A DNA stretch of 64,000 bases from positions 2,532 through 66,531 of the forward strand of contig DUTP01000003.1 of the NCBI GenBank assembly GCA_012842045.1, in the 5' to 3' direction. The notes beneath the pieces are model-generated. The model had not been told where the DNA came from and made no database searches. It saw only the letters and a list, made by a program, of their open reading frames with translations. The DNA is from Candidatus Dojkabacteria bacterium (GTDB taxonomy: Bacteria > Patescibacteriota > Dojkabacteria > SC72). The translations under genes were made by a program, and so were the position numbers. This document shows, one piece after another, positions 1 through 53,561 of this stretch; positions within the stretch are counted from its first letter, which is position 1, and each line of letters opens with the position of its first letter.

Positions 1-3000
1 CTCTCCGGACGATTAAATGAATTAGTACCTAAAACAGAAAATTTAGACATACTTGTTGGCTATTTTTACATAAGCGGTTTCTATCAGTTATATAAAAACC
101 TTGAAGAGGTAGATAAGATAAGGATTTTAATCGGACTTAATACAGAATCACAGGTGGTAGATGCTGTACAAGGTAATTTGGAAATACCTTTCGAATCAGC
201 AAAGAAAGTCAAGGACAGCATAAGTAAAAAATATATTGATGAAGTTGCAGCTGCAGATGACGATGTGAATGTAGAAGAAGGAATGTTGAAGTTTGTAGAG
301 TGGTTACAGAGTGGAAAGTTACAGATAAAGATTTATGACAAGGCACCTCTTCATGCAAAGCTATATATCTTCACATTTAATGAAGGACAATTAGATCCAG
401 GTAGGGTAATTACTGGGTCTAGTAATCTTACAAGATCTGGGTTAAAGGAAAACTTAGAATTTAATGTTGAGTTGAAGAATAGCAATGATTATAAATTTGC
501 ATTAGAGAACTTTAATGCTTTATGGGATGAAGCAATAGAACTTTCTGAAACCCTCAATGAAACTATAACTAAGAAGACTCACCTTAACGAAGAAATTACT
601 CCATATCAACTCTATCTTAAATTCCTCTATGAGTATTTTAGAGAAGATTTAACTGTAGACACAGAAATAGAAGACTATATTCCAGATGGATATTTAGAAC
701 TGGAGTATCAGAAACAGGCAGTAGTCAATGCAAAGAAGATAATAGAAGAGTACGGTGGTGTTTTCATCTCAGATGTTGTTGGTCTGGGCAAAACATACAT
801 CACGGCAAGATTGTTAAATGTTTTAGGAGGTAAGACATTGGTGATTGCATCTCCTGCATTGATTGCGAAAGATAATCCAGGCTCGTGGACTAATGTTTTG
901 ATGGACTTTGGCGTAAGAGGTTTTGAGTGTGAATCTGTTGGTATGTTAGAAAAAATTCTTGAGAGAGGTGTTGATAAGTTTGATAATGTTGTTATTGATG
1001 AATCTCATAATTTTAGAAATGAAGCGACACTGTCTTTTGAAAGACTTACAGAGATATGTAGAGGTAAAAAAGTTGTCTTGGTAAGTGCTACTCCGTTTAA
1101 TAACAAACCGAGTGATTTATTAGCGCAGATTAAGCTCTTCCAAAACAGCAGGAAAAGTACTATTCCAGGGGTACCCAATCTAGAGGCATACTTTTCTAGC
1201 CTAAAATCTAGAATAGGGCAGTTAAGTAGAAGAGATAATTATGAACAGTATATGGAAGTGGCGAAAAGCAATGCTCAAGATATTAGAAATAATATTTTGA
1301 AATATCTGATGGTAAGAAGGACTAGATCTGAGATAGAGAAATATTATAGTGATGATTTGAAAAAACAAGGATTGAAATTTCCAGAAGTACATGAACCGGA
1401 ACCGATATTCTATCAACTTGATAGTGAAGAGGAAGGTGCTTTTAACAAGACAATCTCTTTTATAGAGAATTTTAAGTATAGTCGTTACATCCCATTACTT
1501 TACTATACAGGAGAGTTGACTGAGCAAGAAAGGATTTCTCAGAGAAATATGCTTACATTCATGAAAATGCTTCTACTTAAGAGGTTTGAGAGTAGTGTGT
1601 TTGCATTTAAGAAAACACTCAAAAGATTTATTCGTTCATATGAGTTAATGATAAATCAGTTCGACCAAGGGAATGTATATGTAAGCAAAAAGAGAGCAAA
1701 CAAGGTTTTCCAATTGTTAGAGGAAAACAGGATAGAGGAACTAATGGATTTGATTGAGCAGGAGAAAGTAGAGTTTTATAAGAGTGAGGATTTCAATGAG
1801 AATTTCCGAAAGGATTTGGAGTATGATTTATCTCTTTTAAGAAATCTGGATGAAATATGGGAAAATATAGATAGAGATGTGAAGTTTGAAACTTTTGTTG
1901 AAAAATTAAAGTCAGATAAGATACTAAGTAATAATAAATTAATAATATTCACAGAATCTAAAGAAACAGCCAACTATCTGTCAGAAAAAATAGAGGAACG
2001 GCTAGGTGAAGAAAATCTTAACTATACTGGTGATTCAGCAACAGCTCTAAGAGCAGATGTGATTAAGAACTTTGATGCTAAAGCTCCTAAGAAGGAGAAT
2101 ATTTACAGAATTCTTGTTACAACTGAGGTATTAGCTGAGGGTGTAAACCTACATCAGTCTAATGTTGTTATTAACTATGATATCCCATGGAATCCAACAC
2201 GACTAATGCAAAGGGTTGGAAGAATAAATCGTGTTGATACAAAGTTCAAAGATATATATACATACAACATCTTCCCTTCTGTACAATCTAATGACATTCT
2301 TAAGTTAAAAGAGGCAGCAGAAGCTAAGATACAAATGTTCATAGAACTCTTAGGTAATGATGCAAGATTACTCACAGAAGGAGAGGAGATTAAATCAAAC
2401 GAATTGTTTGATAAGTTATCATCTAAAGAAACCATTATTGGTGAAACAGAAGAAGATAGTGAGCTTAAATATCTAACTGTTATTAAAGATATTCGAGATA
2501 AAAATGTAGAACTGTTTAGTCAGATTAAAAACTTACCTAAAAAATCTCGTTCTGCTCGAAGATTAGAACAACAATCAGGTAAACTTTTGACATATTTTAA
2601 GAAAGGGAAGCTTGATAAGTTTATCATCTCTGGTAGTAAAGAACCCCAAGAGTTAGGTTTTCTTGAAGCTATAAAACTATTTGAATGTAAAGAAGATACA
2701 AAGAGAGTAAATATTCCTTCTAGTTTCTACAAACAGATTAAAAAGAATAAGGAATACTTTGGAAGTATAACCTCAGAGGAAGGTGGGATGGTTCTTGAAA
2801 CTAGAACAGGAGCATTAGACAGGAAAATTCTAAAAAGATTAAATGCAAATACAGTAAAAAGATTTGATGGATTTACTGAAGAACAAGAGGAATATCTAGA
2901 GATTGTAAAGCAGAAAATTGATGAGGGTGCTTTACCTAAGAATTCTGCTAAAAGGATTTGGGGTAAAATGAAGAATATGGTGAAGCCATTAGAGATAGTT

Positions 3001-3111
3001 AGTTTACTTCAAAAAGAAATTTCACCAAACCTTCTTAAAGATACACATTCTCAAGCTAAAGAAAGTGTATCTAATGTCAAAGAAGTTATATTATCTGAGT
3101 ATTTTGAATAA
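1..3111 (+). CDS. PLD-family (HKD) nuclease domain fused to SNF2-like SF2 helicase; 5' end lies outside the window (restriction-subunit-like)
   Basis: Frame 1 is open from nt 1 (LSGRLNELVPKTENLDILVGYFYISGF..., no stop before 154), so the track start at 154 is an artefact. HKD motif HAKLYIF...GSSNLTRSG. Helicase motifs VGLGKTYIT (I), VIDESHNF (II), SATPFNN (III), QRVGRINR (VI). Stop TAA overlaps the downstream ATG (TAATG at 3109-3113). Confidence 0.8.
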   Translation, partial: LSGRLNELVPKTENLDILVGYFYISGFYQLYKNLEEVDKIRILIGLNTESQVVDAVQGNLEIPFESAKKVKDSISKKYIDEVAAADDDVNVEEGMLKFVEWLQSGKLQIKIYDKAPLHAKLYIFTFNEGQLDPGRVITGSSNLTRSGLKENLEFNVELKNSNDYKFALENFNALWDEAIELSETLNETITKKTHLNEEITPYQLYLKFLYEYFREDLTVDTEIEDYIPDGYLELEYQKQAVVNAKKIIEEYGGVFISDVVGLGKTYITARLLNVLGGKTLVIASPALIAKDNPGSWTNVLMDFGVRGFECESVGMLEKILERGVDKFDNVVIDESHNFRNEATLSFERLTEICRGKKVVLVSATPFNNKPSDLLAQIKLFQNSRKSTIPGVPNLEAYFSSLKSRIGQLSRRDNYEQYMEVAKSNAQDIRNNILKYLMVRRTRSEIEKYYSDDLKKQGLKFPEVHEPEPIFYQLDSEEEGAFNKTISFIENFKYSRYIPLLYYTGELTEQERISQRNMLTFMKMLLLKRFESSVFAFKKTLKRFIRSYELMINQFDQGNVYVSKKRANKVFQLLEENRIEELMDLIEQEKVEFYKSEDFNENFRKDLEYDLSLLRNLDEIWENIDRDVKFETFVEKLKSDKILSNNKLIIFTESKETANYLSEKIEERLGEENLNYTGDSATALRADVIKNFDAKAPKKENIYRILVTTEVLAEGVNLHQSNVVINYDIPWNPTRLMQRVGRINRVDTKFKDIYTYNIFPSVQSNDILKLKEAAEAKIQMFIELLGNDARLLTEGEEIKSNELFDKLSSKETIIGETEEDSELKYLTVIKDIRDKNVELFSQIKNLPKKSRSARRLEQQSGKLLTYFKKGKLDKFIISGSKEPQELGFLEAIKLFECKEDTKRVNIPSSFYKQIKKNKEYFGSITSEEGGMVLETRTGALDRKILKRLNANTVKRFDGFTEEQEEYLEIVKQKIDEGALPKNSAKRIWGKMKNMVKPLEIVSLLQKEISPNLLKDTHSQAKESVSNVKEVILSEYFE

Positions 3112-6100
3112 TGACAGAGCAAGAATCAAAGAAGCTCATAACAGAGACTTTTGAAAATGATTTTGATGAGGAGAGATTTAAAAGATTCATAGCTAATTTA
3201 CTAACAGAGTTTCAAGGTGTATCAAAACATACAGATAATCAATATGTCAAGGATGCATATAAACAATATATTGAATCATATGATGTAATAGGTAAATTCT
3301 CAGATTCGCAGAAGAAAACGGTAGATGTTTTAATTGTATATCTAAAGACAGAATCGACATTTACAGCACGAACCCGTCAGAGAAACTTTGCTTTAGATTA
3401 CTTAGAAAGCAAAGCTAAGGATGGTATTTTAATTGCATATGTTCATAAGAATAAAAAGGATTGGAGATTTTCATTTGTTAAATTGGAGAGTGATGTAATA
3501 CAGGATGAAGAAGGTAGAGTTAGGGATGTTTCAATCTTTACTGCTGCTAAAAGGTCATCTTTTCTAGTTGGTTCTAATGAGAATTCATATACTGCTAAAA
3601 AACAATTTTTACCTATTCTTCAGAAGGAAGAGAAACCAACATTTGAAGATATTGAGGAGGCCTTTAGTGTAGAGACAGTAACAAAAGAATTCTTTAATAA
3701 ATATAGAGAACTTTTCCATGATGTACACGAAGCGTTAGAGAAAGAAATTAAGAAGAAACCACATATAAAAGAAGAATTTGAAACAAAAGAGATTTCAACT
3801 GTGGACTTTGCAAAAAAGTTGTTAGGACAGATGGTTTTCCTCTACTTCCTACAAAAGAAGGGATGGTTTGGAGTTGCACCTAAAGAGGAGTGGGGTACAG
3901 GTCCGAAGAATTTCTTAAGAAAACTATTTGAGAGAAAGGATAATTATGGTGAGAATTTCTTTAATGATGTTTTAAAGCCACTCTTCTATGATGCACTAGC
4001 ACAGGATCGAGGACGAGATGCAATATACTCGAGACTTAATAATTGTAGAATGCCATTTCTTAATGGAGGACTTTTTGAACCAATGAGAGGGTATTCTTGG
4101 GAGACTACTGATATATTATTGCCAGATGAGCTTTTCTCAAACGAGGATAAAGAAGGAGAAGATGTTGGTACTGGTATTTTAGATGTGTTTGACAGGTACA
4201 ATTTTACTGTAAATGAGAGTAATCCATTGGAGAAAGAGGTTGCTGTTGATCCTGAAATGTTGGGTAAGGTGTTTGAAAATCTTTTGGATGTTAAAGACAG
4301 AAAAAGTAAAGGATCTTACTATACTCCTAGAGAGATAGTTCACTATATGTGTCAAGAATGTCTAATAAACTACCTTGAAACAGAAACAAAAGGAGAAATT
4401 CCTAGAGACGATATTGAGAACCTGTTACTTCATGGTGAGTCCATTATACAGAATGACTTTGTTACTTTAGAAAAACAAAGAGAAAAGGAAGAGAAAGGGT
4501 ATAAGTATTCTGGTGAATATAAGTTAAAACTTCCAGAGTCTATACGAAAGAATGCTAGAAAGATAGATGATTTACTTAAAGATGTTAAAGTTTGTGATCC
4601 AGCAGTAGGTTCTGGAGCATTTCCATTAGGAATGATAAACGAAATTGTTGGAGCAAGACGGGTGCTTCAGGTTTACTTAAGAGATAGACTTACTATATAT
4701 GATCTTAAGTATCATGCTATTGCTAATTCTATTCATGGCGTTGATTTAGATCCAGGAGCAGTAGATATTGCAAGACTTAGACTTTGGCTTTCTTTGGTAG
4801 TTGAGGAAGAGAATCCAAGACCTCTACCTAATCTTGAACACAGAATTATGCAGGGTAACAGTTTAATATCAGAATATGAAGGGATACCGCTTTTTAACAG
4901 AGAGCTTCTTTCTGAGTTTAATAAGGAGAAATTTGTACAGTTAGGTTTTATCTTTGGTTCTGGTATTAAGAAGAAGATGGAGGAGTTAGAAAGAAGTATT
5001 AAAATGTATGTAGGTACTTCACAAAGATCAGTTAAAGAGTCTTTGGGGGATAGAATAGATGAATTGAGGTGGGAATTGATAGAGGAGACATTAAAAGAGC
5101 AGAATAAGTTAGAAAAGGTAGATGAAATTCGGGAATTAAGAGAGAAGAGTATAAGACCTTTCTTTATATGGGAGTTAGAATTTAGTGAAGTATTTATGAA
5201 AAAGGGTGGTTTTGATATTGTTATTGGAAATCCTCCGTATGTTCAACTGCAGAAAAATCATGGGGAATTAGCTAAAATGTATGAAGATACTGGTTTTAAA
5301 ACATTTACAAGGACAGGTGATATTTATACCTTGTTTTATGAAAAAGGTAATGAAATCTTACATTCCAATGGATACTTGGCATACATTACATCTAATAAAT
5401 GGATGAGAGCTGGATACGGAGAGAAGCTGAGGAAATATTTATCAGAAGAAACAACACCTACTGTTTTAATTGATTTGGGGCCAAATATTTTCGAAACAGC
5501 TACTGTTGATACAAACATTTTAATTTTTAGGAAGGGCTTTTCCGACAAGAAATGTAGATCTTGTATTTTAAGGGAAAACTTTAAGAAAAGTGGTCTTTAT
5601 CTACATGAATATGTGAAGTCAAATAATATCTTACTTGATAAGTTTACTAGTGATAGTTGGTTAATACTTTCCCCTATAGAACGAAGTATTAAAGAGAAAA
5701 TAGAGAAATATGGAACTCCTTTAAAGGATTGGGATATAAAGATTTACAGAGGTATCCTTACAGGTTGTAATGAGGCATTTATTATCGATGGGAAAAAGAA
5801 GGATGAATTAATAAAACAAGATCCTAAATCTGCTGACATTATACGACCGATTTTGAGAGGAAGGGACATAAAAAGGTTTAGTTATGACTTTGCTGATTTA
5901 TATTTAATAAATACACATAATGGAATCGAACAAAAAGGAATACCTCCTGTAAAAATTGATAATTACCCTGCAGTTAAGAAACACTTAGATACTTATTATT
6001 CTAAGCTCAAAGAGAGGGATGATAAAGGAATAACACCATATAACCTTCGTAGCTGTGCTTATATGGAGGAATTTAATAAGCAGAAAATCGTCTATTCAGA

Positions 6101-6425
6101 GATAGTACAAAGTCCTCAGTTTTTTCTTGACAAAAGAGGAGAATTCTTTGTCGAAGCTACTAGCTTTTTAATAACTGGTGAACATTTAGACTACTTAGTA
6201 GATTGGTTAAACTCACCAACAATTGCATGGGTATTCAAACAATTCTATGCTGGTGGAGGGCTAGGGAAAAAGGGGTTCAGATACAAGAAGAAATTCTTAG
6301 AACAATTACCTATTCCAAAACCTAGAAATGATATGAAATATAAAAATACTAATAATTTGATAAAGGCTTATTTGGATCTAACTGACGAAGAGATAAATTT
6401 CATTTCCTCATCTGTTAATTTGTAA
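3111..6425 (+). CDS. gamma-class N6-adenine DNA methyltransferase, Eco57I/TaqI-like family, with C-terminal target-recognition domain (TRD-1, inside the invertible segment)
   Basis: Motifs GSYYTPREIV, CDPAVGSGAFPL (SAM-binding FxGxG), GNPPYVQLQ (NPPY catalytic motif). 1104 aa. The C-terminal ~195 aa are homologous to the convergent ORF 6368..6958. Confidence 0.85.
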   Translation: MTEQESKKLITETFENDFDEERFKRFIANLLTEFQGVSKHTDNQYVKDAYKQYIESYDVIGKFSDSQKKTVDVLIVYLKTESTFTARTRQRNFALDYLESKAKDGILIAYVHKNKKDWRFSFVKLESDVIQDEEGRVRDVSIFTAAKRSSFLVGSNENSYTAKKQFLPILQKEEKPTFEDIEEAFSVETVTKEFFNKYRELFHDVHEALEKEIKKKPHIKEEFETKEISTVDFAKKLLGQMVFLYFLQKKGWFGVAPKEEWGTGPKNFLRKLFERKDNYGENFFNDVLKPLFYDALAQDRGRDAIYSRLNNCRMPFLNGGLFEPMRGYSWETTDILLPDELFSNEDKEGEDVGTGILDVFDRYNFTVNESNPLEKEVAVDPEMLGKVFENLLDVKDRKSKGSYYTPREIVHYMCQECLINYLETETKGEIPRDDIENLLLHGESIIQNDFVTLEKQREKEEKGYKYSGEYKLKLPESIRKNARKIDDLLKDVKVCDPAVGSGAFPLGMINEIVGARRVLQVYLRDRLTIYDLKYHAIANSIHGVDLDPGAVDIARLRLWLSLVVEEENPRPLPNLEHRIMQGNSLISEYEGIPLFNRELLSEFNKEKFVQLGFIFGSGIKKKMEELERSIKMYVGTSQRSVKESLGDRIDELRWELIEETLKEQNKLEKVDEIRELREKSIRPFFIWELEFSEVFMKKGGFDIVIGNPPYVQLQKNHGELAKMYEDTGFKTFTRTGDIYTLFYEKGNEILHSNGYLAYITSNKWMRAGYGEKLRKYLSEETTPTVLIDLGPNIFETATVDTNILIFRKGFSDKKCRSCILRENFKKSGLYLHEYVKSNNILLDKFTSDSWLILSPIERSIKEKIEKYGTPLKDWDIKIYRGILTGCNEAFIIDGKKKDELIKQDPKSADIIRPILRGRDIKRFSYDFADLYLINTHNGIEQKGIPPVKIDNYPAVKKHLDTYYSKLKERDDKGITPYNLRSCAYMEEFNKQKIVYSEIVQSPQFFLDKRGEFFVEATSFLITGEHLDYLVDWLNSPTIAWVFKQFYAGGGLGKKGFRYKKKFLEQLPIPKPRNDMKYKNTNNLIKAYLDLTDEEINFISSSVNL
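5839..5866 (+). repeat. left inverted repeat (28 bp, ttatacgaccgattttgagaggaaggga) inside the methyltransferase gene
   Basis: Perfect reverse complement of 6945..6972. Encodes IRPILRGRD in both genes. Imperfect similarity continues ~30 nt inward. Confidence 0.85.
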
Positions 6426-6944
6426 AGTTTTTGAATGTCGTGTAAAGAGTGTTTTCTATTCTCAATATTTAATGGTATCGGAAGTAATAATAGACGATTA
6501 ACTTTTAATTCTCCTTCAATACCACCTCCCATATAAAAATGTCGTAAAGCAAAATAACAGACATCAGAGGTCAAAAAGCTTTCTAAAGGTATAATATTTG
6601 TACCTGTTATTATATTTCCAGGTGCTACTACCATATACTCTTTAGGCACTATTGAGAAAAATGCGCCTCCTGTCATTATTGCAGGGAAAGCTATTTTCTG
6701 CTTATTAAATTCCTCCCAATAACCTATACTATCTTGTGTCTCAAACCATTTGTTATTAGTTTTCTTTCTTGCATTATTTCCTTTAATTCCATAAACATTT
6801 TTCTTACCTGATTGTTCTAACTTCTCTTTTCCAAAAGTTAGAAGATAGTCTTTTACAGCTGGATAGTCATCGATGTTATAGTTTCTAGAAGGAAAAGTTG
6901 CGATTATCCATTTATCTGCAAACTCATAAGAATACCTCTTTATA
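5867..6944. other. putative invertible DNA segment (TRD shufflon) containing two convergent, homologous TRD-coding halves
   Basis: Bounded by perfect 28-bp inverted repeats. Midpoint (~6406) falls inside the 58-nt convergent overlap of the two TRD reading frames. The codon phase is preserved across the repeats, so inversion yields an in-frame fusion. Confidence 0.7.
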
Positions 6945-6958
6945 TCCCTTCCTCTCAA
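6368..6958 (-). other. promoterless alternative TRD cassette (TRD-2), inverted homolog of the methyltransferase C-terminus
   Basis: Begins LRGRDIKRYSYEFADKW (TTG, no ATG) matching ILRGRDIKRFSYDFADLY of the methyltransferase. Shares EEFNKQKI, GGG and LPIP motifs and the terminal LTDEE.FISSSV. Reading frame stays open upstream through the repeat (RPILRGRD). Confidence 0.75.
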
Positions 6959-6972
6959 AATCGGTCGTATAA
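6945..6972 (-). repeat. right inverted repeat (28 bp), partner of 5839..5866
   Basis: tcccttcctctcaaaatcggtcgtataa is the exact reverse complement of the left repeat. Confidence 0.85.
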
Positions 6973-7012
6973 ATACTACAATAAATGTATTAAATTATTA
7001 AAAAATACATAT

Positions 7013-7621
7013 ATGATTTACGGTTACATTAGAGTTAGTACAGATAAACAAACCTTAGAAAATCAAAGGTTTGAAATACATAATTTTTGTAAACAAAGAG
7101 GATTAGTAATCAATTCTTGGATAGAGGAAACAATATCTGGTACTAAAGGGGTGAATGAAAGAAAACTAGGAAGATTATTACACAAGCTTAAAAAAGAGGA
7201 TATACTAATCTGTTCTGAACTATCTCGTTTAGGGAGAAATATGTTTATGATTATGTCTATTCTAAACTACTGTATGGAGAATGAGATAGAGGTGTGGACA
7301 GTAAAGGATGGATATAGGTTAGGAATAGATATTAGTTCTAAAGTTCTAGCTTTTGCTTTTGGTTTAGCAGCAGAGATAGAAAGAAATTTAATTAGTCAGA
7401 GAACCAAAGAAGCTTTAGCAAGAAAAAGAGCAGAGGGAGTAATTCTTGGAAGACCTAAAGGTCGAAAGTCCTCATATTATAAATTAACAGGTAGAGATGC
7501 AAGTATTAAGAGGCTTTTAGATAAAAATTTACCAAAAACAAGTGTAGCTAAAATTCTTGGAGTACATAGAAATACACTAGATAGATATTTAAAAAATTCA
7601 TACAAATACTCTACGACTTAA
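7013..7621 (+). CDS. small serine recombinase, Hin/Gin/Pin-type DNA invertase (resolvase family) with C-terminal HTH
   Basis: N-terminal IYGYIRVSTDKQTLENQ (catalytic Ser motif). 202 aa. C-terminal KTSVAKILGVHRNTLDRYLK helix-turn-helix. Starts 40 bp after the right inverted repeat. Confidence 0.8.
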   Translation: MIYGYIRVSTDKQTLENQRFEIHNFCKQRGLVINSWIEETISGTKGVNERKLGRLLHKLKKEDILICSELSRLGRNMFMIMSILNYCMENEIEVWTVKDGYRLGIDISSKVLAFAFGLAAEIERNLISQRTKEALARKRAEGVILGRPKGRKSSYYKLTGRDASIKRLLDKNLPKTSVAKILGVHRNTLDRYLKNSYKYSTT

Positions 7622-7657
7622 TCTTGCCCTCCCTCTCCACACCCCATATAATAAACC

Positions 7658-8434
7658 ATGTCTAAACTAAAAAAATATCTTCCTCTTCTCCTACTACTAA
7701 TCATATGTATATCCATATACATATATATAACAAATAAAAAAACACCAGAACAAATATCATTTGAAAAGAAATACTCATTAGAACTAAAAGAATTAAAGAA
7801 AACATATAACATAGATAAATATATATATGATTGGAATAAGGATATAGAAGGATATAAACAAATAGATCAATTAGTAAACAAACCTAAATATCAATTAACT
7901 AGAGAAAAATCAGATGTAAATGTAATATGGACATTAAAAGATGAATATACACTAGAACTAAACTGTCCTAAAGAAGATATAGATAACATTGTATATGGAG
8001 ATCCTAAAGGTTGTAATCTGAAATATAACGGTAATGTAGTAGAAGATAATGTAAGGTATGAAGTATGGGAAGATGAAGGGAGTATAGAAGGGGAGGTAAG
8101 TATGGTCATATATTCATCTAGTAAATACGAATACCTAGTAGTAGGGAAATGGGAGAGTGGTTCTAAGGATAGTATAACCATCTACAGACTAGAAGATGGA
8201 AAAGCTGTTAAAATACCGTTTAACACTAAAGATAAAAAAGAAGATAGTTGGATAGTAGAACACCCCATGTCCCTCTGGTTGTATGACAACCAAGGTAAGA
8301 AGAAGTTAGTAACATCTATCCATGACCCATCTATGTCCCATATACAAGTATTTAGAATATGGAAACCTCAAGGCGATTCTTTCATATTAGAGCAAACAAT
8401 TGGTGATATACCATTAGAAAGCTTTAAGGATTAA
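7658..8434 (+). CDS. hypothetical membrane-anchored protein
   Basis: N-terminal hydrophobic segment LPLLLLLIICISIYIYI. No recognised domain. Confidence 0.4.
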   Translation: MSKLKKYLPLLLLLIICISIYIYITNKKTPEQISFEKKYSLELKELKKTYNIDKYIYDWNKDIEGYKQIDQLVNKPKYQLTREKSDVNVIWTLKDEYTLELNCPKEDIDNIVYGDPKGCNLKYNGNVVEDNVRYEVWEDEGSIEGEVSMVIYSSSKYEYLVVGKWESGSKDSITIYRLEDGKAVKIPFNTKDKKEDSWIVEHPMSLWLYDNQGKKKLVTSIHDPSMSHIQVFRIWKPQGDSFILEQTIGDIPLESFKD

Positions 8435-8681
8435 TAATTTATGCTATTAAAGTGACAGATAATACTCTTTTATCTTCTTTGCCATTAACTTTCTTCTTTC
8501 TACTAAGAAATCTTCATAATTTGATATATCTATGTTAAAGATACTCTCAACTATACAGAATTGACTAAAAACCCTTTATAATGGTATAATTAAAGGTTCT
8601 TAATGGATCTGATATCGATTTAATCAATATATCAGGAACAAATAAAAGTACATAGCATATATTGCGTAGAAGGAGGACTAA

Positions 8682-8939
8682 ATGTCTGTGAAAGATCCCA
8701 CAACTTGGGAAGAGTTACTGGAGGAGCTTGATGAGATGATTAAGCATTTTGGAACCATAAGTAAAAGGGTTGCCAGGCTATATATCATAGCGCAAACTTT
8801 ATCTGATACGGCAACTGAAAAACAGATGCAAAGAGTAGAGCATCTATGTAATGTAGATTCTAAGGAATTATGGAAATCTTTAAAGTTTCACCTAATCGGT
8901 ATACTCTTTTACATCCAACAAAGCTTCAAAAATAACTAA
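8682..8939 (+). CDS. hypothetical small protein
   Basis: 85-aa ORF preceded by GGAGG ribosome-binding site (gaaggaggactaaATG). Confidence 0.35.
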   Translation: MSVKDPTTWEELLEELDEMIKHFGTISKRVARLYIIAQTLSDTATEKQMQRVEHLCNVDSKELWKSLKFHLIGILFYIQQSFKNN

Positions 8940-9066
8940 GAAACTCTAAGTTCTATACATGGTATGATATGACCACCTCCTCAACTTGCAATTATGCTAT
9001 GTACTAGAACTCTTTTAGTTAAAATATAGTAGGAGATTACTCTCCTACCACATTTCTTTTTCTCTG

Positions 9067-10077
9067 TTAAATCTTGTATATCAAGTACTCAGCTGTCTCT
9101 TGAAGAGGACCGTACATAATCATTCTGTACAGGTTACTATCCTGAAGGTTCAACATATAGTAACGAACGATACTTGATCCCATTATCTCTTGCTTAATAT
9201 ATACAATGTCTAATCCCTGTCCATATTCATATGTACCACCCTTAGGATTACTCATAGCTCCAACTACCTTAACAACAGATCCATAAGTTCCTCCTAATGT
9301 ATGCTTTGGATTCATTACATCTTTAAGAAGCATGTAGTTTGATGGAGGAGTAGTTTCAGATGTACTTACTTCCCAATCCTCGTTTGGACGTTTAGAATAT
9401 ATTGTATATCGTGTTGGATATGTAGCATCCTGAACATCTTTTAAGATATATTCTTCTCTTGGCTTCTCACATGTATATGCTCCATTTTCTTCTAATGTAG
9501 CAATTTTACAACTCTGTTGTTTTCTTTCAGCTATCAAACCTTGGAAAATGAATGTCTCATTTGTACCGTGATATGATCCAAATTTATCTATACTTATGAT
9601 ACTATTTTGCATCTTATACTCTCCAATATTTTCCATATTCCTTATTGCCTGATCAAAGAACTGAACGAATTCTTTAATCCTATCATCAGGAATCTTCTGG
9701 CTAGGTTGTAGAGGGAATTTAAACTCTTCATCTTGTGCTAGTACCCAGTTATATACTGGTTTTATATCAGATTGTTTTTTGGAAGTATCAGTGGCTTTTG
9801 TAGTAGTGGTAGATTCAGTTTTCTCTGTAGGTATCTCCAAATCTTTTGTATCACTTAAAACTATTTCTGGTTCAGGAGCTATATCAGAAGCATCTACAAA
9901 GTCCTTGAGCTCTACAGTAGCAGCGATTTGCTGTTCTTTCTCCTTCTTCTCTGTTGGCTCAGAGGTGAGATTAATCTGATTGTTTTTGTAGAGATAAACA
10001 AAGAGTCCAGAGACTCCGATAAGGAGGAATAGTAGAACAATACTTACTATTCTCCAAATGTTGGGTTTGTTTTCCAT
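9067..10077 (-). CDS. hypothetical membrane-anchored/secreted protein
   Basis: N-terminal signal-anchor IWRIVSIVLLFLLIGVSGLFVYLY, followed by a Thr/Lys-rich linker. Confidence 0.4.
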   Translation of the reverse strand: MENKPNIWRIVSIVLLFLLIGVSGLFVYLYKNNQINLTSEPTEKKEKEQQIAATVELKDFVDASDIAPEPEIVLSDTKDLEIPTEKTESTTTTKATDTSKKQSDIKPVYNWVLAQDEEFKFPLQPSQKIPDDRIKEFVQFFDQAIRNMENIGEYKMQNSIISIDKFGSYHGTNETFIFQGLIAERKQQSCKIATLEENGAYTCEKPREEYILKDVQDATYPTRYTIYSKRPNEDWEVSTSETTPPSNYMLLKDVMNPKHTLGGTYGSVVKVVGAMSNPKGGTYEYGQGLDIVYIKQEIMGSSIVRYYMLNLQDSNLYRMIMYGPLQETAEYLIYKI

Positions 10078-10221
10078 ATATTACTCTTTAAAATTATATT
10101 TATACTAACCATAGTATATTAGGTAATGTTGAAAGTCAATTAGTTATGTTAGATAAAAATTGGTGATATTTAATATAATCACTGTACTGCAAACTCGTTT
10201 GTTATAGGGTATAATCATAGT

Positions 10222-11460
10222 ATGAAAGGTGAATTTCTTGACAGTGAAAACAATGAAGTAGAGAAGAATGGTGAAGGCAGTAGATTATCTGTATCTCAAT
10301 TTGAGAGTCTCATACCTGTTTTCGATGAATGTAAAAAGTTTGACAGTGAATTAGAAGTTTTACAACACTTAAAGAAAAAGGAAGTAGAAGAACTTGATAT
10401 TGAAGAGGTTAGAGATAATGCAAGAGCTTCAATACGTGGGACACAAATACACCAATTACAATATTTCTATCAACTCTTCTCCAGAGTGGAGAAATTAGGA
10501 AGAAAAATTACACTGGAGGATTTTAGTAGGACATTTCCAAACAAAGATAATTTATTTAAAGATAATCTGTATTACAATGCCCTATATACCATCTATAATC
10601 TAGTAGATAACACAGAGGATCCGTTAGAATTTTGGGAAGCTTGGAGATTAAATGGACATGATTTTACCCTACCAGAAGGTATTACAGCGTTAATACCTCC
10701 AGAGGAGATTAAAGAGATGTGGGAGAGAAGTGCAGTTACAAAGGATGATATCGATAAATTTAGTCAAAATGTCTGGAAGATAGATAGGGAGAAACTAGAT
10801 CCAGATAAAGCCCTACTTGTTAATGAAGCAATGTTTGTAACGAATACCTATTTAAAAAATGGTAATCTACAAGTACCTACCATGGTAGATGAACTTGTTG
10901 TTCCAAAAGAATTTCCTAATAAACCAATACAGTTAATTGATTACAAAACAGGTAAACAATTTAAAGAACCTAGTGATATAGATAAGTTACAGATATTCTT
11001 AATGATGACCTCTGTTTTGACAAATATATATTTCAAGGTTGAAGATATACAATGGAATCAAAGTATGTGGGAGATAGCACATGATAGTTTAAGATTACCA
11101 TTTATTCCCCCAAGAAAATATTTCAATGCCATTGCTATTGGGAAGATTACAGAGGAAGATATTTTCATGGAGAGTGATTTCTTTAGGAAATTAATATTTT
11201 TTAAGTATGTAAATCCTCTCACTCAGGAAAGTATTGAGGTTAATGCAAAGGATTTAGGTATTCATAGGGATGAGGGTATAGGTGATTTTCTAGCATCTCT
11301 TGATGATTTGAACAAATTCTATACTAAATACAAAAAAATACTCAAACACAAGGTTGGAAGGAGTACATTAGTACAATATTGGATACCAGAGTTAGGATAT
11401 GATGGTTTTAAGAAGGGTAATATCTTAAAGGAACAGATGCAGGCTGGGTTGGGGTTTTAA
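10222..11460 (+). CDS. hypothetical protein
   Basis: 412-aa ORF with no recognised motif. Confidence 0.4.
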   Translation: MKGEFLDSENNEVEKNGEGSRLSVSQFESLIPVFDECKKFDSELEVLQHLKKKEVEELDIEEVRDNARASIRGTQIHQLQYFYQLFSRVEKLGRKITLEDFSRTFPNKDNLFKDNLYYNALYTIYNLVDNTEDPLEFWEAWRLNGHDFTLPEGITALIPPEEIKEMWERSAVTKDDIDKFSQNVWKIDREKLDPDKALLVNEAMFVTNTYLKNGNLQVPTMVDELVVPKEFPNKPIQLIDYKTGKQFKEPSDIDKLQIFLMMTSVLTNIYFKVEDIQWNQSMWEIAHDSLRLPFIPPRKYFNAIAIGKITEEDIFMESDFFRKLIFFKYVNPLTQESIEVNAKDLGIHRDEGIGDFLASLDDLNKFYTKYKKILKHKVGRSTLVQYWIPELGYDGFKKGNILKEQMQAGLGF

Positions 11461-11496
11461 TCTACTACCTTCGACATAGATGATATAATTAAATAT

Positions 11497-12438
11497 ATGA
11501 TTAAAGATAACTTCAAAACAGCATCAGGACATAATTGGTTATCTGGTGAAAAGGTTAATGTAGAAGAGATAAAGAGATTCTTCATCTCAAAGAAAGTAGA
11601 TGTAAAAGAAATTAATGAAACAGGTAGATTTCTAAATATTATTGGTAATCTTAATACTCAAAAAGTATTTATCAAAGTATCAACCTCAGAAGGATTAAAT
11701 GAAAAACTTCTCAATGAAATATCTTGGCATGATGAATTAAAAAGAGTAGGAATAGATTTTTATATTACACCTCTCTTAGAGAATGGATATATTGATAATA
11801 CGTTGGTATATGCAATATATGAGTTTGTAGAAGGTAATACTTTAGATTCAATGATAGAGAAGATAGATAGTAAGATATTAAAAGATCTAGCTAATATTAA
11901 TATCAGTATTGATAGTATTAAAGATATTAATCTTTTTAAGAATCAACAAGAGAGAGAACATGCAGAGAAAGCAATTACTTCAATTAAGGATAAAGCTGCT
12001 CACTACTTTAAAATAGCAGAGAATTTTGCAAAAGAGAGTGGTGAGGATTTAACAAAGTTACTTGATATTGTTAAGAACTATGAGAAGATGGATGAGATGG
12101 GTTTGAATCATAATGATTTTACTCCAAGGAATATATTGTATAGTGATGGTAAATTGATATTAACTGATGGAGAATCTGCTAGTACAACATCTCCTAGATT
12201 CTATGATGTTGCTATTATGTACACCAGACTCTATCTCACATACAGCAGACCTGATTTAGCTGAGGAGTATCTTAATGAATTTATTAAACTTCTTCCTAAA
12301 GATTATCTAGATACTTTTAACTTTGCTTTTAAGACAATGTTAGCTAGTAGAACGATAGGGGGTTTTTGGGAAGCTACAACAGGTGGTGCAGATTTAGAAT
12401 ATTGTAAGATGTTAATGGAAGAAATCTTGAGTATGTAA
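11497..12438 (+). CDS. protein-kinase-like phosphotransferase (APH/choline-kinase-like fold)
   Basis: Catalytic-loop-like LNHNDFTPRNILY (HxDxxxxN) and LTDGESA (DFG-like). Confidence 0.45.
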   Translation: MIKDNFKTASGHNWLSGEKVNVEEIKRFFISKKVDVKEINETGRFLNIIGNLNTQKVFIKVSTSEGLNEKLLNEISWHDELKRVGIDFYITPLLENGYIDNTLVYAIYEFVEGNTLDSMIEKIDSKILKDLANINISIDSIKDINLFKNQQEREHAEKAITSIKDKAAHYFKIAENFAKESGEDLTKLLDIVKNYEKMDEMGLNHNDFTPRNILYSDGKLILTDGESASTTSPRFYDVAIMYTRLYLTYSRPDLAEEYLNEFIKLLPKDYLDTFNFAFKTMLASRTIGGFWEATTGGADLEYCKMLMEEILSM

Positions 12439-12441
12439 TAT

Positions 12442-12975
12442 CTATTTCTTCTTCCTTAGGTATTCTTTGAAAAGGAGAATTGCAGATAGATTAACAGTAT
12501 CTTCTGGTTTAAGGTTCTCTAAATACTCATCATATGGTTTAAGTACAACCTCAATATCTTCAATTTTAGAACCTTCCTTAAATACACACCCTTCTATTAA
12601 TACTGCATATTTAGGACTTGATATATATGCACCATCAAAAATTTTACCAAGTAATGTAGCTTTCTTTCCTACATATCCTGTTTCTTCAGTAAGTTCTCTC
12701 ATTGCACAATCTACTGCGTCTTCATCATTACTATCTAACCCTCCACCAGGGATATCTAAGAACTCTTTCATTGGACCTGGTCTAAACTCTCTTACAAGAA
12801 TAATCTGGTTGTCTTCTGTTAGTGCAATTATTGACGAAGAGCCATATATACTTCCACTAGTTTCATATTCCCATTGTTTACCATTCTTATCTACAAAAGT
12901 TCTTAGGATGACTTTTCTGTAGTTTTTGTATTTTACTTCTTCTTTTATTAATTTCATTGTTATGCTATCTCCCAA
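12442..12975 (-). CDS. Nudix hydrolase
   Basis: Nudix box GGGLDSNDEDAVDCAMRELTEETGY (Gx5Ex7REUxEExGU). Confidence 0.75.
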   Translation of the reverse strand: MGDSITMKLIKEEVKYKNYRKVILRTFVDKNGKQWEYETSGSIYGSSSIIALTEDNQIILVREFRPGPMKEFLDIPGGGLDSNDEDAVDCAMRELTEETGYVGKKATLLGKIFDGAYISSPKYAVLIEGCVFKEGSKIEDIEVVLKPYDEYLENLKPEDTVNLSAILLFKEYLRKKK

Positions 12976-13223
12976 TGAGATAATTTCTTATCTCTAAGTA
13001 CAATTAAAAATTGTTTATCAACATACTTCTCTTTTGTTTTATCATAATGATGAGCAAATACTTCATCTTCTGTTAATTCAGAAAGATGTCTTTTTGATAA
13101 ATCTTTATACTCTATACTAGCTCTTCCTAAGTAATATTGATTTTCCCAAAGAGCAATGAACCAATGATCTGTTTCAAAGAGAATTATTTGATTAGGGTAT
13201 GTGGGGTGTGTTTTGTAATTCAT
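12960..13223 (-). CDS. hypothetical protein (overlaps downstream Nudix gene by 16 nt)
   Basis: 87-aa ORF in an operon-like overlap with the flanking genes. Confidence 0.3.
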   Translation of the reverse strand: MNYKTHPTYPNQIILFETDHWFIALWENQYYLGRASIEYKDLSKRHLSELTEDEVFAHHYDKTKEKYVDKQFLIVLRDKKLSHWEIA

Positions 13224-14023
13224 AGTTCCTTCTTAAATATAATAACCCCTTCCTCTTCTTTCAAAACACCTCCCTTATCCTCTATGTACTCTAATATTTC
13301 ATTCTGTATATCTATTGGTATAGAAATCCAATCAATATTTAAATAAAACTCTACTAATGCTATTACTTCATCAAAGTTTTCTTCATATGGGAATCTAAGT
13401 TCTGATTCATTAAGTATTAATTCTGTATTACCTGATTGTTCTTTTAATATACCCAAAGCTTTGTTATAACTTCTTGGCTTCCAATCTTCAGGATATCTAC
13501 TAGGAACTAACATACTCTTAAATCTTTTCTTGAAATCTGTTACTTCATCTATACCTCTCTCTATCCATATTAAAGTACCTGAATCTTCTAAGAGTGAGAT
13601 AAGTTGTGATAGGAATATTGAATATTCATCTTCAGGAAAATGATATAGGTGTGATGCAAGAATAATATCAAATTTATTTTTGTTCTCTGCATGAAAATCT
13701 TCAAAAGTTTCATTTATAGCCTTACAATTACTGTATTGTTGTATATTTGTCTTTAGTGTTTTGAATAGATCCTTTGCTGGTTCTAAGAATGTAATTTCAA
13801 AATTATTTTCTTCAGGAAGAGATTGTAGAAGATATGATCCATCTCCAGAACCCACATCTAGAATTCTGTTCTGATTGTTCTTAAATCTAGAGAGTATTTT
13901 TTGAAGTTGTATCGTTGATGTATCTTTTTGAGTTGAGTATTTAAGATATATTTCATAGGGGATTAGTGTATTAGCTTTCTGTGTATATTGATGGTTAAGA
14001 GTAGATAGTTGTGGTTTCTTCAT
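13220..14023 (-). CDS. class I SAM-dependent methyltransferase
   Basis: Motif I ILDVGSGDGSY. 4-nt overlap with the downstream gene. Confidence 0.65.
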   Translation of the reverse strand: MKKPQLSTLNHQYTQKANTLIPYEIYLKYSTQKDTSTIQLQKILSRFKNNQNRILDVGSGDGSYLLQSLPEENNFEITFLEPAKDLFKTLKTNIQQYSNCKAINETFEDFHAENKNKFDIILASHLYHFPEDEYSIFLSQLISLLEDSGTLIWIERGIDEVTDFKKRFKSMLVPSRYPEDWKPRSYNKALGILKEQSGNTELILNESELRFPYEENFDEVIALVEFYLNIDWISIPIDIQNEILEYIEDKGGVLKEEEGVIIFKKEL

Positions 14024-53107: not shown

Positions 53108-53266
53108 TGGTGTGGTTTTTAAATTTTAGCTGTCTTCTAGAGACCACAAATGGTCTCCCGCTCACCGACAGTCCCTTTCGGAACCATCCATAAACCTTTC
53201 GGCTTATGACCACACCAATGGCTAGCGAGACAGAAGACCATCTCTGCATTGGTGTGGTTTTTGTGC
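53104..53266 (-). ncRNA. GC-rich structured RNA element with mutually exclusive pairings (riboswitch/attenuator-like; strand uncertain)
   Basis: ~50% GC island in a 33% GC genome. Direct repeats ccattggtgtggttttt (53104-53120) and cattggtgtggttttt (53247-53262). The intervening gaccacaccaatgg (53208-53221) can pair with either copy. GAAA-capped hairpins lie between. Confidence 0.4.
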
Positions 53267-53561
53267 CATACCTACAAAAGTAGGGTTAGGCTATTCAATT
53301 GTTCCAGATTATAGCATTTTCTTTAGAAAAAAGTACAAAAAAACAAATAATAAACATATGCTGTAAAACACAACCAAAACCCTCGCCCCAACTTGCTTTT
53401 GATTATTTCCATGTTAAACAAAAATCTTGGAGAATCTTGGAATATGTTGGAAAATGTTGGTATATGTGAACTGGGTGAAATAACAGCTTTTAAGGGGTTG
53501 TAAGGCTGTTTAAACAGTTGATTACAAGCAAGCGGTGTGTTTATATGTTAAAATCTATTGA

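Follow-up and report, generated by a model that had tools for sequence, protein, structure and literature searches.

The 64,000-nucleotide (nt) stretch of DNA analysed here, hereafter the window, comes from a Candidatus Dojkabacteria bacterium (GenBank assembly GCA_012842045.1, contig DUTP01000003.1, positions 2,532 to 66,531 of the forward strand) and carries an N6-adenine methyltransferase gene whose 3' end overlaps, tail to tail, that of an inverted, promoterless cassette for a second target-recognition domain (TRD). Within the 58 nt shared by the two reading frames, nearly the same C-terminal peptide is encoded on both strands. The locus belongs to an already known kind, the TRD shufflons that switch by programmed inversion, here in a Cj0031/Eco57I-type methylase with a PLD-SNF2 partner, and comprises the following features.

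154..3111, plus strand: PLD (HKD) nuclease and SNF2/SF2 helicase, 985 amino acids (Pfam PLDc_2, RE_NgoFVII, Helicase_C, ResIII)
3111..6425, plus strand: N6-adenine methyltransferase, 1104 amino acids, current allele A1B1 (Pfam Eco57I, N6_Mtase, TaqI_C)
5839..5908, plus strand: left arm of the outer inverted repeat (IR1), exact 28-nt core at 5839-5866, encodes RPILRGRD
6059..6088, plus strand: left arm of the inner inverted repeat (IR2), exact 24-nt core at 6065-6088, encodes EEFNKQKI
6368..6425, both strands: convergent overlap, 58 nt, each stop codon over the partner's Tyr codon
6378..6418, both strands: core of the period-3 quasi-palindrome, L-T-D-E-E-I/M-N/K-F-I-S-S-S-V on both strands
6368..6976, minus strand: promoterless inverted TRD cassette (A2, 6944-6717; B2, 6692-6368)
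6693..6722, minus strand: right arm of IR2, exact core at 6693-6716
6903..6972, minus strand: right arm of IR1, exact core at 6945-6972
7013..7621, plus strand: serine DNA invertase, 202 amino acids, catalytic-Ser motif YIRVSTDKQ (Pfam Resolvase and HTH_7)

Re-translation of both strands placed the convergent overlap at exactly 6368..6425, or 58 nt when both stop codons are counted. The plus-strand open reading frame (ORF; 3111..6425, 1104 amino acids) ends in ...AYLDLTDEEINFISSSVNL, or over a longer stretch in ...KAYLDLTDEEINFISSSVNL, and the minus-strand frame is open from 6976 to the stop codon at 6370..6368 (TTA on the plus strand), ending in ...KLYKLTDEEMKFISSSVRSK; at the overlap itself the two tails read ...LTDEEINFISSSVNL and ...LTDEEMKFISSSVRSK, respectively. 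Because the minus frame runs on from TRD-like sequence (RPILRGRDIKRY... and RPILRGRDIKRYSYEF...), it is in phase with the second cassette. An earlier note on this DNA had described a 58-nt convergent overlap with nearly the same peptide on both strands, in which the methyltransferase and the silent inverted TRD cassette terminate inside each other, and both descriptions were borne out. Its placement of the overlap on the midpoint of the invertible segment, at ~6406, was correct in that the overlap does lie in mid-segment, but ~6406 is the midpoint of the outer repeat pair; that of the inner pair is 6390.5, and the palindrome centre is 6398.

The overlap forms a quasi-palindrome with a period of three around base 6398, which is the wobble base of the Asn/Lys codon. 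At distances of 1 to 19 from this base, every pair formed by codon positions 1 and 2 is complementary (13/13) and five of the six wobble pairs are mismatched, the third positions of both frames being the same base pairs. The two tails are identical at 12 of 13 residues in the core, as against 38% identity across the rest of the two TRDs. The corresponding period-3 pattern, GANGANGANATNAANTTNATNTCNTCNTC, occurs once in the window and was absent from 100 dinucleotide-preserving shuffles, even with two mismatches allowed. The overlap is confirmed as an observation and lies far beyond chance.

The peptide at the overlap belongs to a wider family. A C-terminal motif was recognisable in 185 of 240 homologues (L in 82%, T in 61%, any residue, E in 65%, E in 96%, I in 58%, any residue, then one of I, L, F or Y, then I or V), followed by residues that are variable; usually 7-10 residues follow LTxEE, and the window tails have 10 and 11. 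An AlphaFold2 (AF2) model of the window methylase, with a predicted local distance difference test score (pLDDT) of 82.8, places helices at 1080-1087 and 1092-1103, and alignment and model together point to LTDEEI.FI as the C-terminal helix of the family.

Conservation of the overlap in related loci, which had been proposed as a check, was found: 10 distinct loci keep the centre in an unchanged register, and methylase identity is as low as 30-37% in some of them. A scan of a metagenome collection with the period-3 pattern returned 11 hits, 8 of them in this gene context. Three are from the window's own species (L073, L074 and L078), and hits at five other loci (L070, L071/L077, L076 and L079) show the same arrangement of PLD-helicase, methylase, inverted cassette and serine invertase wherever the contig is long enough, with 37-39% (methylase), ~24% (helicase) and 65-66% (invertase) identity to the window proteins. 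Hits in L069, L072 and L075 had no similarity to any protein of the locus and were taken as chance or remnants; the one in L072 (14115-14143) reads LIEEEIKFISSSII / IIEEEMNLISSSIN in ORFs of 33-36 amino acids on a 60-kb contig with no methylase context. Furthermore, homologues of the L077 methylase often end in ..E-I/M-x-F/L-I-S-S-S.., and at every locus fetched for such homologues (L080/L081, L082, L083, L084 and L087) the two frames overlap convergently by 49-85 nt, again in this register.

Over nine distinct centres, at distances of 1 to 14, complementarity held for 87 of 90 pairs of positions 1 and 2 and for 15 of 45 wobble pairs; for the latter, the expectation of random complementarity in AT-rich DNA was put, by our own estimate, at between about a quarter and a third. 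The wobble bases themselves change freely from locus to locus among these nine, and the only differences between the cores of L070 and the window are wobble changes and a synonymous change in the first position of one Leu codon. At the 10 loci, all 20 stop codons lie over a Tyr (11) or His/Gln (9) codon of the partner, just upstream of L-T/F-T, which sets the length of the overlap. Judged from these sequence comparisons, the overlap is neither incidental nor lineage-specific. No window-type centre was present among 66 GTDB loci found by methylase similarity, and the closest relatives of the methylase backbone (L003 and L004) have no inverted cassette.

The 'same peptide' on the two strands is one constrained family motif together with its own antisense, rather than two tails designed independently. 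Both cassettes carry the family motif L-T-x-E-E-I-x-(F/L/I)-I, with which each would have to finish, and in the clade of the window the two motif copies lie antisense to each other, wobble facing wobble and position 1 facing position 2, in a register centred on the codon after Ile/Met. In the wobble-on-wobble phase, the antisense of GAN (Asp/Glu) is TCN (Ser), that of ACN (Thr) is GTN (Val), ATN yields ATN and AAN yields TTN. Thus, L-T-D-E-E-I-N on one strand entails F-I-S-S-S-V on the other, and vice versa, and each ORF, once past its own motif, reads its partner's motif backwards as F-I-S-S-S-V. The Ser codons of the tails are all TCN, which matches the antisense prediction. The Asn/Lys difference between the tails comes from the single central base, which is read as part of AAT (Asn) in one frame and of AAA (Lys) in the other; the Ile/Met difference arises because Phe needs TTY, so that the opposite codon is ATR, either Ile (ATA) or Met (ATG). 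A stop codon is possible in this phase only opposite a TA- or CA- codon, and each of the two window stops faces the partner's Tyr in a conserved ..(L)Y.LT.. stretch.

The proteins encoded around the overlap could be assigned to known families. The 154..3111 product matched the PADLOC model 'HKD+Snf2' C3a139 (E 1e-39), and the stop codon of its gene overlaps the methylase start at 3111. The best PADLOC model for the methylase was REase_MTase_IIG, a Type IIG restriction enzyme-methyltransferase (887 bits); its TaqI_C TRD spans residues 913-1068 according to Pfam, its nearest solved structures are CamA, BseCI and PglX, and its first 143 residues are encoded, with 99% identity, on a contig from an uncultured Saccharibacteria metagenome-assembled genome (MAG; L058). 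The minus-strand cassette (6976..6368) is 38% identical in amino acids to methylase residues 911-1102 and lacks the N-terminal part. The invertase belongs to the Mpi family (NCBIfam NF009949, 'master DNA invertase Mpi family', 330 bits against a cut-off of 272). The methylase is flanked by the PLD-helicase and the invertase, and the next ORF matches no family. Assignment to BREX type 1 PglX was rejected (NCBIfam BREX-1 model NF033452, 90 bits against a cut-off of 500), as was class 1 DISARM, for which the DrmD model scored 128 bits against a cut-off of 610 and DrmMI matches were partial only; no drmA, drmB or drmC genes were seen in window positions 1-14000.

As in other shufflons, a full-length methylase with its TRD is accompanied by a promoterless copy on the opposite strand, by repeats in both copies and by an adjacent site-specific recombinase gene, and both orientations occur in nature; between the repeats, the expressed and inverted copies are only ~38% identical in protein. 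L001, a metagenome contig from JGI, follows the window as far as 6088, continues with 6716 to 6059 reversed and is collinear again from 6693, so that it is 99.2% identical to the window with 6059-6716 inverted. Its methylase (P0002, 1100 amino acids) ends in ...KLYKLTDEEMKFISSSVRSK and, within the overlap, in ...LTDEEMKFISSSVRSK, which is the 'silent' tail of the window. The window arrangement itself was also found in contigs L002 and L073. The view in the earlier note that either TRD is expressed with the shared tail after inversion thus holds for the other tail, but the inversion documented in the window's own lineage uses IR2 (6065-6088/6693-6716) rather than the outer pair. In L071 and L077, two contigs from one study whose flanks are 99.9% identical, the sequences lying between IR1 and IR2 have changed places, with the orientation of the inner segment and the centre unchanged; such an exchange requires inversions at both repeat pairs. 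With two active repeat pairs, four TRD alleles are possible (A1B1, A1B2, A2B1 and A2B2): an IR2 inversion would swap the B half and an IR1 inversion the whole TRD, and the 58-nt overlap would represent the 3'-to-3' junction of the alternative C-terminal half-cassettes, B1 on the plus strand and B2 on the minus strand. The shufflon probably switches the TRD of a Type IIG-like (Cj0031/Eco57I-family) methyltransferase, and allele-specific target motifs are predicted.

Relatives of the locus show further rearrangements. In one that was present in two samples (L080, 6593-10141, and L081; ENA ERZ27297755 and ERZ28633307), the body of the helicase gene is on the opposite strand, where it continues in frame into the silent TRD cassette (...RAVELME joined to RFGTPLKDWDIKISRG...FISSSVR and a stop codon), while the last ~89 helicase residues stay upstream of the methylase. 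The layout resembles the outcome of a large inversion of the helicase 3' end, the methylase and the cassettes, which might switch restriction off. At three other loci (L077, 7187-8547; L076, 9599-11120; L082, 6587-8069), the 'silent' cassette ORF lies directly 3' of an invertase gene on the same strand, with a 4-nt overlap or a 1-nt gap at the junction, and could be co-transcribed with the invertase or even translated; the invertase of the window is on the other strand.

The explanation favoured here, at a probability of about 0.8, is that the overlap is the B1/B2 junction of an invertase-driven nested shufflon, that the two motif copies there are antisense to each other, and that purifying selection on both proteins maintains the arrangement. 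It draws on directly observed frames, palindrome geometry, natural inversions, conservation and wobble pattern. The last of these, a sequence signature, indicates purifying selection on both proteins rather than homogenisation of the DNA. Both tails would be expressed in turn after inversion, and purifying selection on each would hold the arrangement; because neither tail would escape damage from an insertion, a deletion or a change at position 1 or 2, the overlap would be locked. The DNA palindrome probably has no function of its own. Several points weigh against this explanation. The AF2 model puts SSSV in the terminal helix with a pLDDT of about 88, and the tail may, on that model, matter structurally rather than being passive read-through; the idea that SSSV.. 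is a disordered, unconstrained tail was dropped on the same ground, although these residues are variable in the family alignment. The strict register at 30-37% methylase identity could reflect a positive function of the overlap. In addition, the window's own lineage shows only IR2 inversion, in one of about five contigs, use of IR1 being deduced from relatives, and metagenome contigs could in principle be chimeric, though the breakpoints fall cleanly in exact repeats.

Among the alternatives, gene conversion between the two arms, which the earlier note had presumed to maintain the symmetry of the palindrome, is highly improbable. The contrast between tails that are identical at 12 of 13 core residues and TRDs that are only 38% identical elsewhere would suit it, but the tail identity follows automatically once two constrained motif copies overlap symmetrically. 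Furthermore, the arms in the window differ at 12 of 13 aligned wobble positions, and wobble complementarity over the loci (15/45, against 87/90 at positions 1 and 2) is at the level of chance, whereas the repeats that really recombine also agree at their wobble positions, as in the 28- and 24-nt cores here and in the repeats of L076 (324 nt at 99% and 33 nt at 100%). Because the centre is non-identical at synonymous positions in every locus, homogenisation by gene conversion is excluded. The same wobble data bear on the proposal that the palindrome acts as a DNA or RNA element, either a bidirectional terminator hairpin or a dyad site for the invertase or an accessory factor. Its dyad symmetry, its position at the centre of the invertible segment and its location at an operon end with no other terminator-like site make this worth considering; a scan of 5600-7700 for a GC-rich stem followed by a T run found none. 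However, a mismatch at every third base leaves stem segments of only 2 bp, the predicted RNA fold (-7.2 kcal/mol, z = +0.32) is equalled or bettered by 117 of 200 shuffles, and the near-chance wobble complementarity across nine loci makes no constraint beyond the two frames visible, so that such a role is very unlikely. Judged by eye, the centre has no evident similarity to IR1 or IR2 that would mark it as a third recombination site. Finally, AT-rich genomes do yield long spurious antisense ORFs, and the minus frame might be open by accident and never form part of a protein; the chance of such an ORF-calling artefact is close to nil, however, since the pattern did not arise in 100 shuffles, the minus frame is continuous with a TaqI_C-like cassette and is fused to the methylase in P0002, and the arrangement recurs in 10 loci.

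That the overlap is itself adaptive, either because a compact segment raises switching or because convergent transcription couples the methylase to the cassette/invertase transcript, is unlikely. Among the GTDB-based tail-to-tail loci (the window and 10 others), the 3' ends overlap in 7 of 11, by 58, 17, 17, 17, 8, 8 and 6 nt, and the register is kept across the 10 window-type loci. Actively inverting loci have a shorter distance between coding sequences (CDSs), according to the passages drawn on here of a survey of programmed inversions (Milman et al., 2023). The cassette position directly 3' of a same-strand invertase gene in L077, L076 and L082 would also fit. Against this, some 60 nt saved from an invertible segment of 650-1100 nt is a small gain, the locus L017 works with a 295-nt spacer, and the co-transcription idea is inapplicable to the window, where the invertase is on the other strand. 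A related and doubtful proposition is that selection, and not a frozen accident, has made the self-antisense motif a design principle of this shufflon clade. If it were true, a single inversion would exchange the recognition domain while keeping a functional C-terminal helix constant in the shortest possible invertible segment, and where the cassette follows the invertase gene, the centre might couple methylase and invertase expression by convergent transcription.

Other cassette junctions bear on how the overlap may have arisen. In the GTDB sample, 10 other loci of the family have tail-to-tail cassettes, and those that do not overlap are 1-295 nt apart. Cassette ends would thus tend to be pushed together, which fits the association of short CDS distance with active inversion. 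Such compaction probably arose because short distances between repeats favour inversion, and in the clade of the window it would have reached the conserved motif itself; it could proceed into the motif because, in this phase, the antisense of the motif is free of stops and encodes residues that are tolerated. An alternative origin, of equal standing with compaction, is an inverted duplication that would have folded back at the quasi-palindrome ATnAAnTTnAT (I-N/K-F-I). Three of the other junctions form a separate class with a 17-nt overlap (L028, 7615-7631; L037, 8113-8129; L059, 7684-7700), which reads TTATTGAnnnTCAATAA in L028 and L059 and TCATTGAnnnTCAATAA in L037 and encodes I-E/D-x-Q/R-stop ('IExQ' before the stop) on both strands, in a phase unlike that of the window; L037 and L059 are Bacteroidota MAGs and L028 is labelled just 'bacterium'. 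In L017 (7890-8270; Planctomycetaceae), both cassettes end in the identical peptide LSKEEIEFIESL, and the tails form an exact inverted repeat, wobble positions included, around the 295-nt spacer, which makes this locus the non-overlapping counterpart of the window.

The methylase is a mosaic, as seen when window 3111-6425 was compared with P0003-P0015 and P0121-P0202. Over residues 1-830 it shares 59-90% identity with a group that has ordinary tails (e.g. ...LTKEEIELVEKSTKS) and, at the loci examined, no cassette, and only 16-36% with the L077 clade. For residues 831-992 and the tail, the L077 clade is at least as close (44-63% and 36-45%, respectively). Together with the 65% identical invertase, this mosaic suggests that a module of TRD and invertase, dual-coded centre included, may have moved between methylase backbones. 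A fragment in a Cloacimonadales genome (L051, 10468-10779, minus strand; ETQDSIGYWEEFNRQKI...) is nearly identical in peptide to the silent A2/IR2 region of the window and lies ~2 kb of unrelated sequence away from that genome's own methylase; TRD modules seem to be shared across phyla.

Several known systems invite comparison. In the hsdS shufflons of Type I systems (S. pneumoniae SpnD39III ivr/cod, Mycoplasma pulmonis hsd, Bacteroides), site-specific inversion within the gene shuffles half-TRDs. As in the window, several methylation specificities come from one locus and nested repeats give combinatorial alleles; in contrast, a separate protein with two TRDs serves there as the specificity subunit, most of the recombinases are of the tyrosine type and, to our knowledge, the silent hsdS genes do not share coding nucleotides. 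Conserved antiparallel overlapping genes of prokaryotes likewise have frames on opposite strands that are both under purifying selection and third positions that coincide, and the marks of such dual coding, a register shared by diverged relatives and substitutions synonymous or conservative in both frames, are present here. However, the products in the window are paralogous ends of one protein, used alternately, and the overlap is symmetric, the peptide being its own antisense.

The closest counterparts are the Cj0031-type inversion loci (C. jejuni Cj0031; e.g. Bacteroides ovatus CP083813.1) described by Milman, Yelin and Kishony (2023, NAR, PMC9881135). The passages of that paper drawn on here report the Cj0031 homologue with a PLD+SNF CDS as a target of programmed inversion confirmed by long reads, and Eco57I-domain methylases among the most enriched inversion targets. 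These loci share with the window the pairing of a PLD-SNF2 protein with an Eco57I-domain methylase, the partial inverted copy of the methylase 3' end, repeats within the coding sequence, the adjacent recombinase gene and alternative orientations in natural sequences. They differ in that the window cassettes share 58 nt that code for the conserved tail on both strands, and neither overlapping cassette ends nor a dual-coded C-terminus is mentioned in the same passages. How an internal region can vary while the C-terminus stays constant is a problem discussed there for the PglX inversion loci of BREX type 1, which carry a methylase of a related superfamily (Milman et al., 2023): Lacticaseibacillus rhamnosus needs two nested inversions and Brevibacterium casei splits the protein, whereas one inversion suffices in the window because both strands of the centre encode the constant C-terminus. 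Literature searches found no earlier description of overlapping or dual-coded cassette ends, and as far as these searches show, the conserved self-antisense C-terminus is an undescribed variant of a known shufflon type.

The dual-coded tail is a fully explainable curiosity rather than a new biological principle, and the understanding of how phase-variable restriction-modification systems work is unchanged by it. It does, however, show cleanly, in nature, that antiparallel dual coding can be long-lived in bacteria: the two frames are used alternately, and the second half of either peptide follows from the genetic code itself. It also represents a third solution to the problem that programmed inversion faces in varying a domain while keeping the C-terminus constant. 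The pattern GANGANGANATNAANTTNATNTCNTCNTC is a compact signature by which such shufflons can be found directly in metagenomes, and annotators should be aware that convergent overlaps of 49-85 nt at these loci are real and not ORF-calling errors.

Two minor observations were made in passing. Both contigs that encode P0004, a methylase 74% identical to that of the window (L085 and L086), end ~130 nt past the methylase stop codon, which may be an assembly break at a repeat or invertible segment. Elsewhere in the window, at 53167-53292 on the minus strand, a LOOT RNA (Rfam RF03000) was detected with 74.5 bits against a gathering score of 46.4.

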